Shown here: in pieces, positions 20,486 through 25,292 of the stretch | Layout of the letters: the number at the start of each line of letters is the position of its first letter | Numbering within the stretch: position 1 is the first letter of the stretch | Origin: an archaeon | Lineage (GTDB): Archaea > Nanobdellota > Nanobdellia > Pacearchaeales > GW2011-AR1 | Assembly (NCBI GenBank): GCA_030605415.1 | Contig: JAUWIJ010000006.1 | Coordinates: 2,335 to 66,334, forward strand | Length of the DNA stretch: 64,000 nt | Reading direction: 5' to 3' | Notes under the pieces: generated by a model | The model's database searches: none | Told to the model about the DNA's origin: nothing | Seen by the model: only the letters and a program-made list of their open reading frames with translations | Program-made: the position numbers and the translations under genes

Positions 20486-21493
20486 ATGATTATTGGAATT
20501 ACTGGGACATTGGGTGCGGGGAAGGGGACGATTGTTGAATATCTTTTGAAGAAGGGTTTTAAGCATTATTCTGTTCGGGATTTTTTGGTCGAGGAAATTG
20601 TAAAAAGGGGAATAGAATCTAATCGGGAAAATATGGTTTTGGTTGCGAATGATTTGAGGGCGAAATTTGGTCCGAGTTGTATTGTTGAGGAGTTGTATAA
20701 AAAAGCGAAGAGCGATGGTGGAGATTGTGTCATTGAGAGTTTGCGATGTCCGGGAGAGGTTGAGGCATTAAAAGGAAAAAAAGATTTTGTTTTGTTTGCG
20801 GTTGATGCAGATATTGAAACGAGGTATACGAGAATTTTTGAGCGGGCGAGCGAAACGGATAGAATTTCGTTTGATGAATTTGTGGTGCAGGAACAGAAAG
20901 AGATGAGTTCGAGTGATCCGAATAAGCAGAATCTTCGAAGGTGTATTGAGATGGCGGATTACAAATTTAAAAATGATTGGACAATTTCCGAATTGCACGA
21001 GAAGGTAGAGAAAGTTTTAGAGAAAATTAGTGGGGTTAAAAAACATGTTAGACCGACGTGGGATGAGTATTTTATGGAAATTTGCAGGGCGGTTGCAAAG
21101 CGTGGAACCTGCGATAGGGGGAGGAGCGGTTGTGTTATTGTTAGGGGTAAGCAGGTTTTGGTGACGGGTTATGTTGGGTCACCGGTTGGGTTGCCTCACT
21201 GCGATGATGTTGGGCATCAGTTTGAAAATACTATTCATGAGGATGGCGTAGAGCGGGCGCATTGCATTCGGATCACGCATGCTGAACAAAATGCTATTTG
21301 TCAGGCGGCAAAGCTTGGAATTCCTATTAATGGGGCTACGCTTTATTGTAAGATGGAGCCGTGTCCAGTTTGTGCAAAGATGATTATTAATTCCGGAATA
21401 AAAAGAGTTGTTTGTGAGAAACGGTATCAATCTGGGGCACAGAGCTTGATGGAAGAAGCTGGAATTTTGGTTGAAGAGATTAAGGAGTATTAA
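20486..21493 (+). CDS. P-loop nucleotide-kinase-like domain fused to a dCMP/cytidine deaminase domain
   Basis: N-terminal GITGTLGAGKGT P-loop. C-terminal zinc deaminase motifs HAEQNAI and PCPVCAKMI. Confidence 0.8.
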   Translation: MIIGITGTLGAGKGTIVEYLLKKGFKHYSVRDFLVEEIVKRGIESNRENMVLVANDLRAKFGPSCIVEELYKKAKSDGGDCVIESLRCPGEVEALKGKKDFVLFAVDADIETRYTRIFERASETDRISFDEFVVQEQKEMSSSDPNKQNLRRCIEMADYKFKNDWTISELHEKVEKVLEKISGVKKHVRPTWDEYFMEICRAVAKRGTCDRGRSGCVIVRGKQVLVTGYVGSPVGLPHCDDVGHQFENTIHEDGVERAHCIRITHAEQNAICQAAKLGIPINGATLYCKMEPCPVCAKMIINSGIKRVVCEKRYQSGAQSLMEEAGILVEEIKEY

Positions 21494-21611
21494 GGTTAGA
21501 ATATTAATGGGATTGTTATTATGCTCGCGAGATTCAGGGTAGAAGTGTGTATGGTAACAAGATAGTATTGAGTGTAATAATATTTATAATAGTGAGAGAT
21601 AATATTTATTT

Positions 21612-22241
21612 ATGAATAATCGTGTTACAGTTATTAGGGAAGGGGAATTGGGAAGTCGTCCTAATTGGGATGAATATTTTATGAATTTGGCTATTGGTGT
21701 TTCTAGTCGTGCTTCCTGCTATAAAGTTCATGCTGGCTCTATTTTAGTGAGAAATAAGCGCATAGTTGGAACAGGGTACAATGGTGCTCCTGCTGGGGCC
21801 GAGTCCTGTTTGGAAAAAAAGAGGTGTCATAAAGAGATTGAAACAGGTAATAGCTATGAAAAAACTATGAATATGGGGCTTTGTCGTGGAGTTCATGGAG
21901 AGATGAATGCATTGCATCATTTGACTCAGCAGTCCAAGATGTCTGAGTTATCTTTATACACTACCATTTTTCCATGCAATAGTTGTGCTAAGAATATTTA
22001 TGGGATTGAGAAGTTGGTTTTCAAGTCTGCCTATGATTCTAGAGAGTTTGATTCTGCTCTTGATTTATTTTTAGAAGGTGGAACTGATGTTTATCAGTTA
22101 GATATGAGCCCCATGAGAAAAATAGATATTGATATTAATCATTCTAATGTTGTCCATGGTATTTGGTCTCCTAAACATATGGAACAGATTGTCGAGATGA
22201 GGAAAATGCTGAAAAAGTTAAGGGGAGAATATGAAATTTAA
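21612..22241 (+). CDS. dCMP/cytidine deaminase family protein (second copy)
   Basis: WDEYFM..., HGEMNAL and PCNSCAKNI motifs. Codon composition looks different from the core genes by eye. Confidence 0.75.
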   Translation: MNNRVTVIREGELGSRPNWDEYFMNLAIGVSSRASCYKVHAGSILVRNKRIVGTGYNGAPAGAESCLEKKRCHKEIETGNSYEKTMNMGLCRGVHGEMNALHHLTQQSKMSELSLYTTIFPCNSCAKNIYGIEKLVFKSAYDSREFDSALDLFLEGGTDVYQLDMSPMRKIDIDINHSNVVHGIWSPKHMEQIVEMRKMLKKLRGEYEI

Positions 22242-23673
22242 ACCAATTTATTACAAAAAAGAAAATCCTGTAGATAAAGGATTGTCTGTTGTCAATGATA
22301 AAGGTAGTGCGGGTATTGTTACATTATGGACGAATCCAGATAGATATAAGGACAGGTTAATAAGCAGATATCCAAAACTTTTTGAAAGTGATTCTCAATT
22401 GGTTACACTTACTAGTCTTTATGGTAACGGCTTACCTCAAATGCTTGCAAATCTATCTTATAATCCGCAGATTGCACGAATTGCCATAACAGGGGTTGAT
22501 ACAAAGGTTGTTCCTATCTCAGAATATCTGACGAATTTTTTGAAAGGAAATGTTGACCTTAGAGATTATGGTGGAGTGCCCATGAATAAAATTCAGGGGA
22601 GCCAATATTATCTTGATTCTCAGTTGAATCCTGAAATGTTTAAATATTTAGAGGTTAAAAAATTTGAAACTTCTGATTTGGAGGGGGTTGCTAATTATAT
22701 TACTAGTTCACGCCAGCGGGGCGTTTCTGAATCTGATCGTATCAGGATTAAATTAGCTGAACCTGAATTTACAGATTTCCCTTCCGATTTGTCTGAACAT
22801 AATATTATTACTAGGACTCCCCTAAAGGCCTGGCGTGAAGTATTATGGCATTTAGATAGATTTGGGAAAAGTATTAATATTAAAAAAGGAGTCCGTCGCG
22901 GATTATATAATCTTGATGTCTGCGTTACTGATGCCTCTTTTGAGAATAAATCTCTTTTAAAAAAGTGGGGCTTTAATATTAATTCATTAAAAGAATATCA
23001 AAAAGATATTTTAGACAAAGTGCTCCTGGATGGGGCGGGCTATGGCTATGGGAATAGAATAGGAGATTATTTTGGCGGCAATGCTTTGGAAAAAGTTTCT
23101 GAACTTCTTAATCAAGATTCTTTCAGTAGACATGCCTTTGTCTCTCTTTGGGATACCCGGAGAGATCTTTTAGAGAGAAAATCTTCACCGTGTTTCACCG
23201 ATGCATATTTCATTAAAGACGTTAAGGACAATTCTTTAATGATGACTGCGAGTTTTAGGACGCATAATGCCGCATCGGCTTGGCTTATTAATCTGTATGG
23301 TCTTCGAGCTATACAGGAGAAAGTCGCGAGCAATACAGGCATGAATCCAGGGAAAATCAATCTTCGAAGTAGGTGGATTGGGATTGATCCTCTGGACCCT
23401 AAGATTATTGGGACTTTGGAGAAAATTAAAGCAAAGAGAAATATTCCGATTGACATTAATGATTCAAAGGGATATTATATTATTGATACTGATGCTGATA
23501 AGATTATTGTCCAGCATTTTAGTCCCGATAGTGTTCGCCTTGAAGAGATTGTGGGGGGTAGCGCAGAGGATATTAAAAACAAGTTAAGACAAATAGACGG
23601 ATTCTCATCTACCGATCATGCTATGTGGGTTGGGATGCAACTTGCTAATGCTGAGAGAAAGTTGAGGAAGTAA
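22231..23673 (+). CDS. Thymidylate-synthase-like protein (archaeal type) with a ~290-aa N-terminal extension
   Basis: RHAFVSLWDT...SSPCFTDAYF...SFRTHNAASAWLINLYGL parallels ThyA RxxxxSxWNP...PC...RSxD...N, with the catalytic Cys present. The N-terminal part is unassigned. Confidence 0.55.
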   Translation: MKFKPIYYKKENPVDKGLSVVNDKGSAGIVTLWTNPDRYKDRLISRYPKLFESDSQLVTLTSLYGNGLPQMLANLSYNPQIARIAITGVDTKVVPISEYLTNFLKGNVDLRDYGGVPMNKIQGSQYYLDSQLNPEMFKYLEVKKFETSDLEGVANYITSSRQRGVSESDRIRIKLAEPEFTDFPSDLSEHNIITRTPLKAWREVLWHLDRFGKSINIKKGVRRGLYNLDVCVTDASFENKSLLKKWGFNINSLKEYQKDILDKVLLDGAGYGYGNRIGDYFGGNALEKVSELLNQDSFSRHAFVSLWDTRRDLLERKSSPCFTDAYFIKDVKDNSLMMTASFRTHNAASAWLINLYGLRAIQEKVASNTGMNPGKINLRSRWIGIDPLDPKIIGTLEKIKAKRNIPIDINDSKGYYIIDTDADKIIVQHFSPDSVRLEEIVGGSAEDIKNKLRQIDGFSSTDHAMWVGMQLANAERKLRK

Positions 23674-24380: not shown

Positions 24381-25156
24381 GTGAAAGTTGTATCAGGATT
24401 GACATTGTAAAAGAGATACCGTTTGTGGGCAATGGAGATAGTTTGGTTAATAGATTAAGAAAGGTTTCACTTAAGGGGTTTCCCGATGTCAAAATCTACA
24501 AAGATGCTTCGTTTGCTCTTCAGACTTTGAGTTCGGACGAGATAATTGAAAATTTACATACACCGCAACCCCATGTTTATAGAGATAAGCTTAATAGGGT
24601 TTCGTCGTTGCGCAAACTGTTCCTAGAAAAGGGCATAGATATTTTACATTTAAATAATGCTTATGATTTTATTGCAGAAGACAACAGGCATGTCCGAACC
24701 AATTGGACGATGATTTCTCCAGTTGTTGAGAGTTTTGGCATCCCTATAAATTCTAGAGGTGGGTTCAATTATACTCCTTTAATTGGGAGAAGATTGCGCG
24801 CTAAGTTAACGGAAAAAGAATTGGATGTTAATCCAGAGGTGGCCAATATTCCTTATACTTTAAAAGAAGATACCTGCAATTTAATTAATGATGGGTCACA
24901 TAGAATTCATTGCGGTGTTGAAAGTAAAAATGGAATTAAAGTTATAAAAATTGCGGGGATGGTTGGGGGCTTTCCTTATTATGCTGTTCCGCAGTTATAT
25001 TCAAATATTAAAGTAATTAAAGATAGAGATCAAAAATCTATCGAAACTAAGATTCATGTGGTAGAAGCTCCTGGGCATAAAGATTTGTATAGGCTTTTTC
25101 CTTCTGGTGGAATTATGTCGGGGGATGTTCGTTCAGACAATCGCCTCAAGGAATGA
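24377..25156 (+). CDS. Hypothetical protein with a possible ParB/Srx-like DGSHR motif
   Basis: LINDGSHRIHCG resembles the DGHHR-type motif of the ParB/sulfiredoxin fold. ATGA overlap with the HAD gene. The assignment is weak. Confidence 0.35.
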   Translation: MSESCIRIDIVKEIPFVGNGDSLVNRLRKVSLKGFPDVKIYKDASFALQTLSSDEIIENLHTPQPHVYRDKLNRVSSLRKLFLEKGIDILHLNNAYDFIAEDNRHVRTNWTMISPVVESFGIPINSRGGFNYTPLIGRRLRAKLTEKELDVNPEVANIPYTLKEDTCNLINDGSHRIHCGVESKNGIKVIKIAGMVGGFPYYAVPQLYSNIKVIKDRDQKSIETKIHVVEAPGHKDLYRLFPSGGIMSGDVRSDNRLKE

Positions 25157-25217
25157 GCCAGAGTTTTAGTATTAATTAAGCATAGTTTTTTAAATAAAAT
25201 TTTTCATAGTTTTATAT

Positions 25218-25292
25218 GGCTCCATAGCTCAGCCTGGTCAGAGCACTGGACTTTTAATCCAGGTGTCGGGGGTTCAAATCCCCCTGGGGCCA
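25218..25292 (+). tRNA. tRNA-Lys (anticodon UUU)
   Basis: Manual cloverleaf: acceptor GGCTCCA/TGGGGCC, D arm GCTC..GAGC, anticodon arm CTGGA-CTTTTAA-TCCAG, T arm GGGGG-TTCAAAT-CCCCC. Confidence 0.9.

Follow-up and report, generated by a model that had tools for sequence, protein, structure and literature searches.

A conserved four-gene cassette of DPANN archaea as a candidate thymidylate-forming replacement for ThyX, SHMT and dUTPase

Thymidylate synthesis is thought to use two types of enzymes, ThyA and ThyX, each with its well-known helpers. Among the described systems closest to the locus presented here are the short 'methanogen' form of ThyA (TIGR03283, e.g. M. jannaschii MJ0757) and the pyrimidine-replacement gene sets of phages. 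The T4 set contains a dCTPase, a dCMP hydroxymethylase, a dNMP kinase and a dCMP deaminase, and the SPO1 and PBS1 sets combine a dC-nucleotide deaminase with a thymidine monophosphate (dTMP) phosphatase (PMC12697855). The locus lies in a stretch of 64,000 nucleotides (the window, i.e. the whole stretch of DNA that was analysed) of contig JAUWIJ010000006.1, from the genome of a DPANN archaeon (888 kb in 22 contigs, 89% complete). Five consecutive + strand genes, g1 to g5, had been described in an earlier note made from the sequence alone, and all the corresponding open reading frames (ORFs) are present (Table 1). The cassette proper is formed by g2-g5 (21612-25156), which encode a deaminase, a protein with a thymidylate synthase (TS) fold, a phosphatase of the HAD family and a protein of the ParB-CE family.

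The cassette resembles both described systems in part. Like the short methanogen ThyA, the g3 protein has the TS fold, a catalytic Cys within a PC motif, a phosphate-binding Arg (R343) and a uracil-reading Asn (N354). It likewise lacks the large ThyA inserts, is placed in gene clusters of deoxynucleotide (dNTP) metabolism and has a distribution complementary to that of ThyX. With the phage sets the cassette shares its deaminase, its TS-fold enzyme and its nucleotide phosphatase, and possibly also a kinase or NTPase acting on nucleotides. On balance, g2-g5 probably constitute a self-contained DPANN thymidylate-forming cassette, which in this genome would have displaced ThyX (or ThyA) together with serine hydroxymethyltransferase (SHMT) and the dUTPase Dut.

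In searches of the window genome, ThyX, canonical ThyA and dUTPase were all missing, as was any match resembling dihydrofolate reductase (DHFR), and the profile search with PF00692 (dUTPase) gave no match anywhere in it. The g3 protein is the only PF00303-like match in this genome, as are its counterparts in 10 other genomes with the same cassette variant (variant A, described below). Two of the missing genes have left remnants in the window. The dut reading frame reaches its first stop after 28 codons, of which the first ~25 read as the dUTPase N-terminus and the remainder is repeat sequence. The thymidylate kinase gene tmk (Tmk, 74% identity by tblastn) is followed and overlapped by the last 61 codons of an SHMT gene (51% identity over 61 aa to the DHFR::SHMT fusion of a relative, E 8e-13), a remnant that is the scar of a deleted ThyX/ThyA-SHMT cassette. 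The same depletion is observed across genomes. ThyX occurs in 2 of 26 cassette genomes and in 32 of 61 relatives (p = 8e-5), SHMT in 0/27 against 10/50 (p = 0.012) and dUTPase in one of 11 variant-A genomes against 38 of 59 (p = 0.002). Given this depletion and the dut and SHMT stumps, the cassette is most likely the only thymidylate route of the cell. The alternative proposed in the earlier note was that the genome, having lost dut and glyA, makes dTMP by a replacement route, and it is this proposal that the stumps, the missing ThyX and ThyA and the depletion bear out.

The slot between a TtuA-like gene and nrdR is occupied differently in each genome. In G024 it contains a Tmk::ThyX fusion and SHMT, with dut intact; in G021 an ordinary fusion of MtrA-like, TS and DUF4346 domains, Tmk, ThyA and DHFR::SHMT; in L017 the cassette itself; and in the window only tmk and the SHMT stump. 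The neighbourhood from dut to rpoB holds a ThyX-Tmk pair in G012 and a variant-B cassette in G031. The G024 fusion (L048, G024:C1, 16830-19064) is a 744-aa ORF in which thymidylate kinase is joined to a tandem ThyX, with SHMT behind it; in many relatives ThyX is duplicated in tandem within a single long ORF (450-770 aa).

The g2-g5 cassette is a conserved unit. Loci with the long form of ParB-CE were surveyed in one genome per GTDB species (26 loci) and in three metagenome loci, which makes 29. The TS-fold gene adjoins the long ParB-CE gene in all 29 and the HAD gene in 28; the HAD and ParB-CE proteins are obligate partners of this type of TS. NrdR, ribonucleotide reductase (RNR) and thioredoxin are neighbours of the cassette in 10-11 loci each. 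All but one of the 26 long ParB-CE records are labelled as archaea (Woese-, Pace-, Nanoarchaeota or 'archaeon'), the last one being labelled only 'bacterium', and the homologues in public records carry the labels Pace-, Woese- or Nanoarchaeota. Variant A (the window and 13 other loci) has the order g3-HAD-ParB-CE; this order, a ~55-nt gap between g3 and g4 and a 4-nt overlap between g4 and g5 recur. The deaminase g2 opens the cassette in the window, and in L017 too it stands in front of g3. In variant B (16 loci) the TS-like protein is shorter, reaches up to 43 bits for PF00303 and has the motifs PCLQR and FRSRN; ParB-CE and then HAD come after it, often with a deaminase nearby. In one locus (P0175; L020, 1876-3264) the long ParB-CE and a dCMP deaminase are fused into a single protein of 462 aa; this fusion comes after the g3 homologue and HAD and before thioredoxin.

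Diverged four-gene sets were found on bacterial contigs (L052, L054 and L055), where they lie between ribosomal-protein genes of bacterial type; DnaX and sigma-70-type genes are present as well on the L052 contig. The four genes encode a ParB-CE-like protein (258-622 aa), a deaminase-like protein (~290-320 aa), a protein of 805-813 aa and a HAD protein. The 805-813-aa protein has a weakly MtrA-like N-terminus and a TS-like core that matches g3 (hhalign 3e-12) and carries the motif ARAHN. Around the L054 set lie NUDIX, SHMT and Nuc_deoxyrib_tr genes. The TS-domain tree neither supports nor rejects a single clade for variants A, B and C. In L053 a short ParB-CE precedes an RTHN-type fusion, and in L056 (20-2757) a 479-aa protein is followed by a short ParB-CE and then by thymidylate kinase. 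The 479-aa protein, which contains an RHRR stretch, was considered as a g3-like candidate and ruled out, having no Pfam match and no likeness to g3. ParB-CE may accompany thymidylate genes more generally. The g3 subfamily is present in 3 of the 37 genomes of the genus and, at high score, is missing from all 300 genomes drawn evenly from the class. The cassette is conserved in DPANN and has remained undescribed: the literature search found no description of DUF4346, ParB-CE or the cassette, the ParB-CE matches being unrelated fluorescent fusions, and the literature found on ParB/Srx kinases and on DPANN thymidylate synthase describes the cassette nowhere.

The predicted architecture of g3 is an MtrA-like domain, a TS domain and DUF4346, in that order. 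The earlier note had recognized the TS-like part by its RHAFVSLWD, PC and FRTHN...LIN motifs, which holds, and had placed before it an unassigned N-terminal domain of ~290 aa, which is in fact ~190 aa and assignable; the profile searches that it proposed also revealed the C-terminal DUF4346, missed at the time (PF14251, 39.7 bits against a cut-off of 29.6). The N-terminal ~190 residues of g3 have no Pfam match themselves, PF04208 included. The family is nevertheless homologous over its whole length to the L012 fusion (hhalign probability 100%, E 8e-40), and the N-termini of such homologues match PF04208 (MtrA) above its cut-off of 25 bits, with 40.9 bits (2e-10) in L012 and 37 bits in L013; the L012 N-terminus also matches the MtrA structure 5LAA at 5e-11. 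The MtrA-like nature of the g3 N-terminus follows from this end-to-end homology. Corrinoid-dependent methyl transfer through this domain was considered and set aside. His84 of MtrA is reportedly the axial ligand of the cobamide; at this position the L012 and G021 fusions have His but the g3 family has Pro (consensus V-P-S), and the domain as a whole is missing from variant B.

The TS domain of g3 was assigned by profile and by model. The g3 profile matches PDB ThyA at 2e-6, and the AlphaFold2 (AF2) model from a 38-sequence alignment (predicted local distance difference test, pLDDT, 89.6; predicted TM-score, pTM, 0.83) has the alpha/beta fold of TS. Foldseek matches this model to TS-fold enzymes of the PDB at 1e-10 to 1e-8. 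The best match is the phage dCMP hydroxylase AfhB (9iqu; 1e-10, TM 0.75 on target), followed by the flavin dCMP monooxygenase 9iqc, the CMP hydroxymethylase MilA and then many ThyA structures. A flavin/O2 hydroxylase activity like that of 9iqu is considered unlikely for g3, since the organism uses a class III RNR. By profile alignment Cys321 (P320-C321), Arg343 and Asn354, invariant in the 38 homologues, correspond to C146, R166 and N177 of E. coli ThyA. On the other hand, the pterin-binding Asp169 of ThyA is replaced by Asn346 (motif R-T-H-N) and the Arg126-Arg127 pair by R300-H301, whereas the ordinary DPANN fusions and ThyA retain R-S-x-D and Arg-Arg. MtrA-TS-DUF4346 fusions (~450-560 aa), short TS proteins (~215-235 aa) and lone DUF4346 proteins (~110-140 aa) are widespread in the archaeal class, with some match in 86 of the 301 genomes sampled. 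Fusion of TS to MtrA-like and DUF4346 domains is a general habit of DPANN, apparently undescribed.

The assignments that the earlier note had made by eye for the other cassette genes, namely g2 as a second, stand-alone deaminase, g4 as a HAD phosphatase and g5 as a ParB/Srx-like protein with DGSHR, were all confirmed by profiles and motifs. The g2 protein keeps the zinc motifs HxE and PCxxC as HGE and PCNSC. The g4 protein has DLDGT at residue 19 (DxDxT) and the acidic pair of GDRLNSD, and belongs to the HAD-IA phosphatases with 59.6 bits for PF00702 (cut-off 26.4). Its nearest models are of pyrimidine 5'-nucleotidase types, all of them under cut-off (TIGR02253 4e-20, YjjG-type 5e-13, pyrimidine 5'-nucleotidase 3e-11), and it cannot be equated with a named nucleotidase, reaching 49 of the 159.9 bits required for YjjG and 43.3 of 142.9 for pyrimidine 5'-nucleotidase.

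The g5 protein scores 59.2 bits for PF24392 'ParB CE domain' (cut-off 23). It contains a ParB/Srx-like core (PPVVE...NDGSHR) with an insert of ~45 aa and a conserved C-terminal part; the PPxV ... GxHR pair is the signature of sulfiredoxin and ParB. Its AF2 model has a pLDDT of 92.7. No significant fold match was found in PDB or BFVD by Foldseek, and none by PDB profile search. The best PDB hit has an E of 0.39, neither ParB nor Srx structures are among the PDB hits listed, and the BFVD hits are phage ParB/Sulfiredoxin-domain proteins below threshold (E 0.4-4, probability 0.15-0.44). PHROG and PADLOC gave no match. A profile search of 1.8 billion representatives retrieved 273 relatives, which comprise the DPANN form of ~255 aa and a wider ParB-CE family of ~200 aa without the 45-aa insert. 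Common to both are Y41, Q64, PPxVE (E118), INDGxHR (D172-R176), PYYA (200-203), K225, R239 and R252, a pattern of invariant residues that looks enzyme-like.

Catalytic residues are kept in g3 (Cys321/Arg343/Asn354), g2 (HxE and PCxxC) and g4 (DxDxT), from which activity is predicted. The gene set and its conservation, its distribution relative to ThyX, Dut and SHMT and its place in the TS slot are observations; the scheme that follows, with its substrates, with dTMP as product and with the parts played by g4 and g5, is inferred. The class III RNR encoded upstream would make dCTP, and dC nucleotides would be taken down to the monophosphate level. Then, g2 would deaminate dCMP to dUMP, and the TS-fold domain of g3 would attach a one-carbon unit to the C5 position of dUMP by means of Cys321; Asn354 would fit uracil rather than cytosine as the substrate. 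The product would subsequently be phosphorylated by Tmk, also encoded upstream. The g4 and g5 proteins most plausibly act on the phosphate state of pyrimidine deoxynucleotides, either by bringing dCTP/dUTP down to monophosphates or in product control. The fusion of ParB-CE to a deaminase, the RNR context and the lost dUTPase speak for such a role. As a best guess, g5 would be a ParB-type (d)CTP/dUTP-binding hydrolase or phosphotransferase that works with the g4 phosphatase, both supplying dCMP/dUMP to the deaminase and the TS in place of the missing dUTPase.

The position of the genes and of neighbouring features is given in Table 1. The earlier note had the last three genes overlapping by 4-11 nt. 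The overlaps of 11 nt (g2/g3) and 4 nt (g4/g5) exist, while a gap of 38 nt lies between g3 and g4.

Table 1. Coordinates of the cassette genes, the domains of g3 and the neighbouring features in the window
Feature	Coordinates	Strand	Assignment and evidence
g1	20486-21493	+	AAA_18 4e-11 and dCMP_cyt_deam_1 4e-25
g2	21612-22241	+	PF00383 dCMP_cyt_deam_1 3e-18; PHROG dCMP deaminase 7e-32
g3, 480 aa	22231-23673	+	MtrA-like domain, TS fold and DUF4346 (predicted)
g3 residues 1-190	22231-22800	+	MtrA-like Rossmann-type domain, by full-length homology to L012 fusion
g3 residues 199-379	22825-23367	+	TS-fold domain, TIGR03283 4e-23
g3 residues 411-479	23461-23667	+	DUF4346 (PF14251, Pfam 'PterinBD-DUF4346') 8.6e-10
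g4	23712-24380	+	HAD-IA phosphatase; PF00702 7e-16
g5, 259 aa	24377-25156	+	PF24392 ParB-CE, long form, 6e-16
tRNA-Lys(UUU)	25217-25293	+	ARAGORN and Rfam
Two ~105-nt mini-elements	25294-25503	+	Repeat family D4; each ends in a copy of the tRNA 3' end
dut remnant	17638-17724	+	dUTPase N-terminus stump, by translation
tmk and SHMT 3' remnant	7957-8851	+	tblastn; SHMT part ~8669-8851

The genes had been regarded as a single five-gene island, with a change of codon composition from 21612 and a boundary at the tRNA gene and its repeats. The composition of g2-g5 is ordinary for this genome: GC content, GC at third codon positions (GC3), G/C skew and synonymous-codon likelihood fall between the 30th and 65th percentiles of 815 genome ORFs, and the tetranucleotide divergence, which answers the k-mer test proposed in the earlier note, lies at the 76th percentile of 1633 sequence windows and reveals no shift. 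The contrast seen by eye arose because g1 and rpoB, which flank g2-g5, lie at the G-rich end of the genome range. Consequently a compositionally foreign g2-g5 was rejected, and composition argues against a recent foreign origin.

The tRNA-end repeats are real (25276-25293, 25382-25399 and 25486-25503). All of them are on the 3' side of the tRNA and do not bracket the block, and they belong to genome-wide mini-elements of ~105 nt, each closed by a 3' end copy of the preceding tRNA. Two such elements follow tRNA-Lys, the second also holding an inverted T-arm-like stretch (25391-25413), and a homologous element of ~106 nt follows tRNA-Thr (59851-59958). The same tRNA-Lys adjoins rpoB in G005, G012 and G024, all without the cassette. 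It is a conserved landmark before rpoH-rpoB and not an attachment site of the cassette, and its role as an integration site was rejected on these grounds. The block holds g2-g5 alone, without an integrase. The marks of a tRNA-targeting island (integrase, bracketing tRNA repeats, compositional shift) were not found in it; only the absence from close relatives with conserved flanks was. G024 is colinear with the window (tmk, nrdR, nrdD, nrdG, an oppositely oriented conserved gene, dut, g1 and rpoB) and lacks g2-g5. Synteny in relatives, another check proposed earlier, gave a mixed answer: g2-g5 are not core synteny and g1 is. The cassette is an indel, and comparison of RpoB identity with cassette identity is not decisive between transfer and loss.

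The g1 gene is a core gene of the genus, vertically kept and normally placed after dut, and is separate from the cassette. Full-length orthologues (53-79% identity) occur in ~15 of 36 genomes of the same genus, and several others have partial copies; the gene usually sits immediately downstream of dut. The protein (335 aa) has an adenylate-kinase-type P-loop (GAGKGT) and a zinc deaminase domain (HAE, PCPVC); Pfam and NCBIfam matches uphold the kinase-deaminase fusion that had been read from the sequence. The anti-phage dCTP deaminases (NF041025, PADLOC dCTPase) have the same plan, in which a kinase-like domain with a P-loop is joined to a zinc cytidine-deaminase domain, and PADLOC matches g1 to dCTPase at 2e-42. 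However, g1 is shorter than the 437-position model, reaches 111.4 bits for NF041025 (cut-off 400) and is conserved vertically beside dut, without the sporadic distribution of defence islands. From this conservation g1 is a housekeeping gene, probably encoding a dC-nucleotide deaminase that partners Dut. Zinc-type dCTP deaminases of its family are documented in phages (PMC12697855).

Upstream of g1 a very AT-rich cassette (18701-20323; GC 0.26 and the 98th percentile for tetranucleotide divergence) does look foreign by composition. It encodes one AAA_14/DUF4143 ATPase (PADLOC PDC-S01, 1e-107) and is flanked by direct repeats of ~70-95 nt (18701-18772 and 20226-20323), which are copies of the g1 promoter and initial codons. 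The start of g1 is duplicated again in a nested manner (47 nt, 20277-20323 and 20483-20529, 96% identical). This duplication encloses an insert of ~160 nt with (ggtattc)x3 and a repeat copy that is also present at 17827-17872, and the insert creates a spurious ORF at 20280-20489.

Several observations weigh against thymidylate formation as the function of the cassette. The absences are statistical, not absolute, given that the genomes compared are metagenome-assembled genomes of 70-90% completeness, and dUTPase is kept in 9 of the 16 variant-B genomes, which weakens the idea of its replacement. The TS domain of g3 remains under the curated cut-offs (TIGR03283, 81.9 against 174.55 bits; PF00303, 20.0 against 24.3), C5 hydroxylases and hydroxymethylases outrank ThyA among its fold matches, and Asn occupies the Asp169 position in every ParB-CE-linked TS-fold type. 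No SHMT or DHFR was found in the window genome to supply or recycle a folate-type cofactor. An ordinary TS needs no phosphatase or ParB-like partner, and the cassette may do more than form dTMP. The depletion of ThyX is equally expected if thymine is replaced by a modified base. A tentative and less probable reading is that ParB-CE, HAD and the Asn-type TS with a deaminase make up an undescribed pyrimidine pathway of ultra-small archaea and some bacteria, where either a 5-modified uracil would replace thymine, or dTMP would be made without SHMT and DHFR while ParB-CE and HAD perform new nucleotide chemistry. Base replacement proper is an unlikely explanation. There, g3 would be a dUMP hydroxymethylase or another C5 transferase and the DNA would contain 5-hydroxymethyluracil or a derivative instead of thymine, as in Bacillus phage SPO1-type DNA; ParB-CE would phosphorylate the modified nucleotide or the 5-substituent (cf. 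sulfiredoxin, serine kinase) and the HAD protein would remove dTMP/dUMP. The Asp169-to-Asn change, not found in ordinary DPANN fusions or ThyA, would suit such an enzyme, as would the rank of AfhB 9iqu, 9iqc and MilA ahead of ThyA, although this ranking may simply reflect the short TS form and the O2-dependent chemistry of 9iqu and 9iqc is unlikely given the anaerobic class III RNR. A hydroxymethylase leaves folate unoxidised, in line with the DHFR not found in the window genome; a Nuc_deoxyrib_tr-family gene follows one bacterial version; the loss of ThyX and Dut fits equally well; and T-excluding phages combine dC-nucleotide deaminases with dTMP phosphatases (PMC12697855). On the other hand, tmk is retained within the same supercluster, the cassette occupies a housekeeping RNR/NrdR context and the thymidylate-synthase slot, glycosyl-, amino-acyl- or other tailoring genes are missing, and g5 has no match among phage or defence families (PHROG, PADLOC). 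Moreover, complete replacement of T is not known in cellular prokaryotes.

Two further explanations concern the origin of the nucleotides and of the genes. It is quite improbable that the cassette is a module for pool management or salvage, with a nucleotidase, a deaminase and a ParB-fold nucleoside/nucleotide kinase cycling on pyrimidines scavenged from the host, g3 as one outlet and thymidine nucleotides mostly imported. DPANN genomes generally lack de novo nucleotide synthesis, the closest models to g4 are pyrimidine 5'-nucleotidases, and 16 of the 61 relatives lack both ThyX and a TS-fold gene, which makes it seem possible that this lineage imports thymidine nucleotides. However, HAD and ParB-CE are strictly tied to a TS-fold gene (29/29) and the cassette is anti-correlated with ThyX, both of which point to synthesis and not to salvage alone, and the cassette accompanies RNR genes, which make deoxynucleotides de novo from ribonucleotides. 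A mobile defence or counter-defence island at tRNA-Lys, with g1 as an anti-phage dCTP deaminase and the other genes as helpers, is already largely refuted and is regarded as extremely unlikely. The kinase-plus-deaminase architecture of g1 with its PADLOC dCTPase match (2e-42), the PDC-S01 type AAA_14/DUF4143 cassette immediately upstream and the nearby tRNA-end repeats had pointed to it. Against it, g1 reaches 111 of the 400 bits required and is a core gene beside dut across the genus, g2-g5 have no defence-model matches except the generic deaminase domain, and neither an integrase nor a compositional shift accompanies the repeats, which are mini-elements.

The preferred reading, a thymidylate-forming cassette, would show how genome-reduced symbionts without SHMT, DHFR or dUTPase obtain thymine, and would provide a function for the orphan families ParB-CE and DUF4346. 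If a modified base were made instead, this would be the first cell-encoded wholesale replacement of thymine in prokaryotes. A third arrangement is present in place of ThyA and ThyX in dozens of DPANN species, with diverged versions in bacteria. In either case, it offers a testable handle on the nucleotide metabolism of uncultured DPANN and corrects the annotation of ~100 'hypothetical' proteins.

Compared with the short methanogen ThyA, g3 scores under the family cut-offs, has Asn for Asp169 and Arg-His for Arg-Arg, and has its TS domain fused to an MtrA-like domain on one side and to DUF4346 on the other. HAD and ParB-CE genes always go with g3, and no SHMT or DHFR was found in the window genome. 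The ordinary DPANN MtrA-TS-DUF4346 fusions (G021, 467 aa; G040, 508 aa) share the three-domain plan of g3 (hhalign E 8e-40, ~25-27% identity). They differ in retaining the R-S-N-D motif and Arg-Arg, with the MtrA His84 equivalent also retained in the G021 copy, and are not linked to HAD or ParB-CE; the G021 fusion adjoins Tmk, canonical ThyA and DHFR::SHMT.

With the nucleotide-using proteins of ParB/Srx fold (ParB CTPase, sulfiredoxin, the archaeal serine kinase SerK, DndB/DpdB), g5 shares the PP(I/V)xV ... (D)GxHR pair in the same order, its membership in the Pfam 'ParB CE domain' and a weak, sub-threshold structural resemblance to phage ParB/Sulfiredoxin-domain proteins. It differs from them by the 45-aa insert and the conserved C-terminal extension (PYYA, K225, R239, R252), has neither a DNA-binding helix-turn-helix domain nor an Srx-type catalytic Cys, and gives no significant Foldseek match to solved structures; its genomic partners are nucleotide enzymes. 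In relation to the phage sets, the cassette lacks tailoring enzymes and has as fourth component a ParB-CE protein without a PHROG match. The specificity residue of g3 is Asn, of the uracil type, whereas the dCMP hydroxymethylases have Asp, and the cassette is cellular, placed in a housekeeping context and in the position of the host TS.

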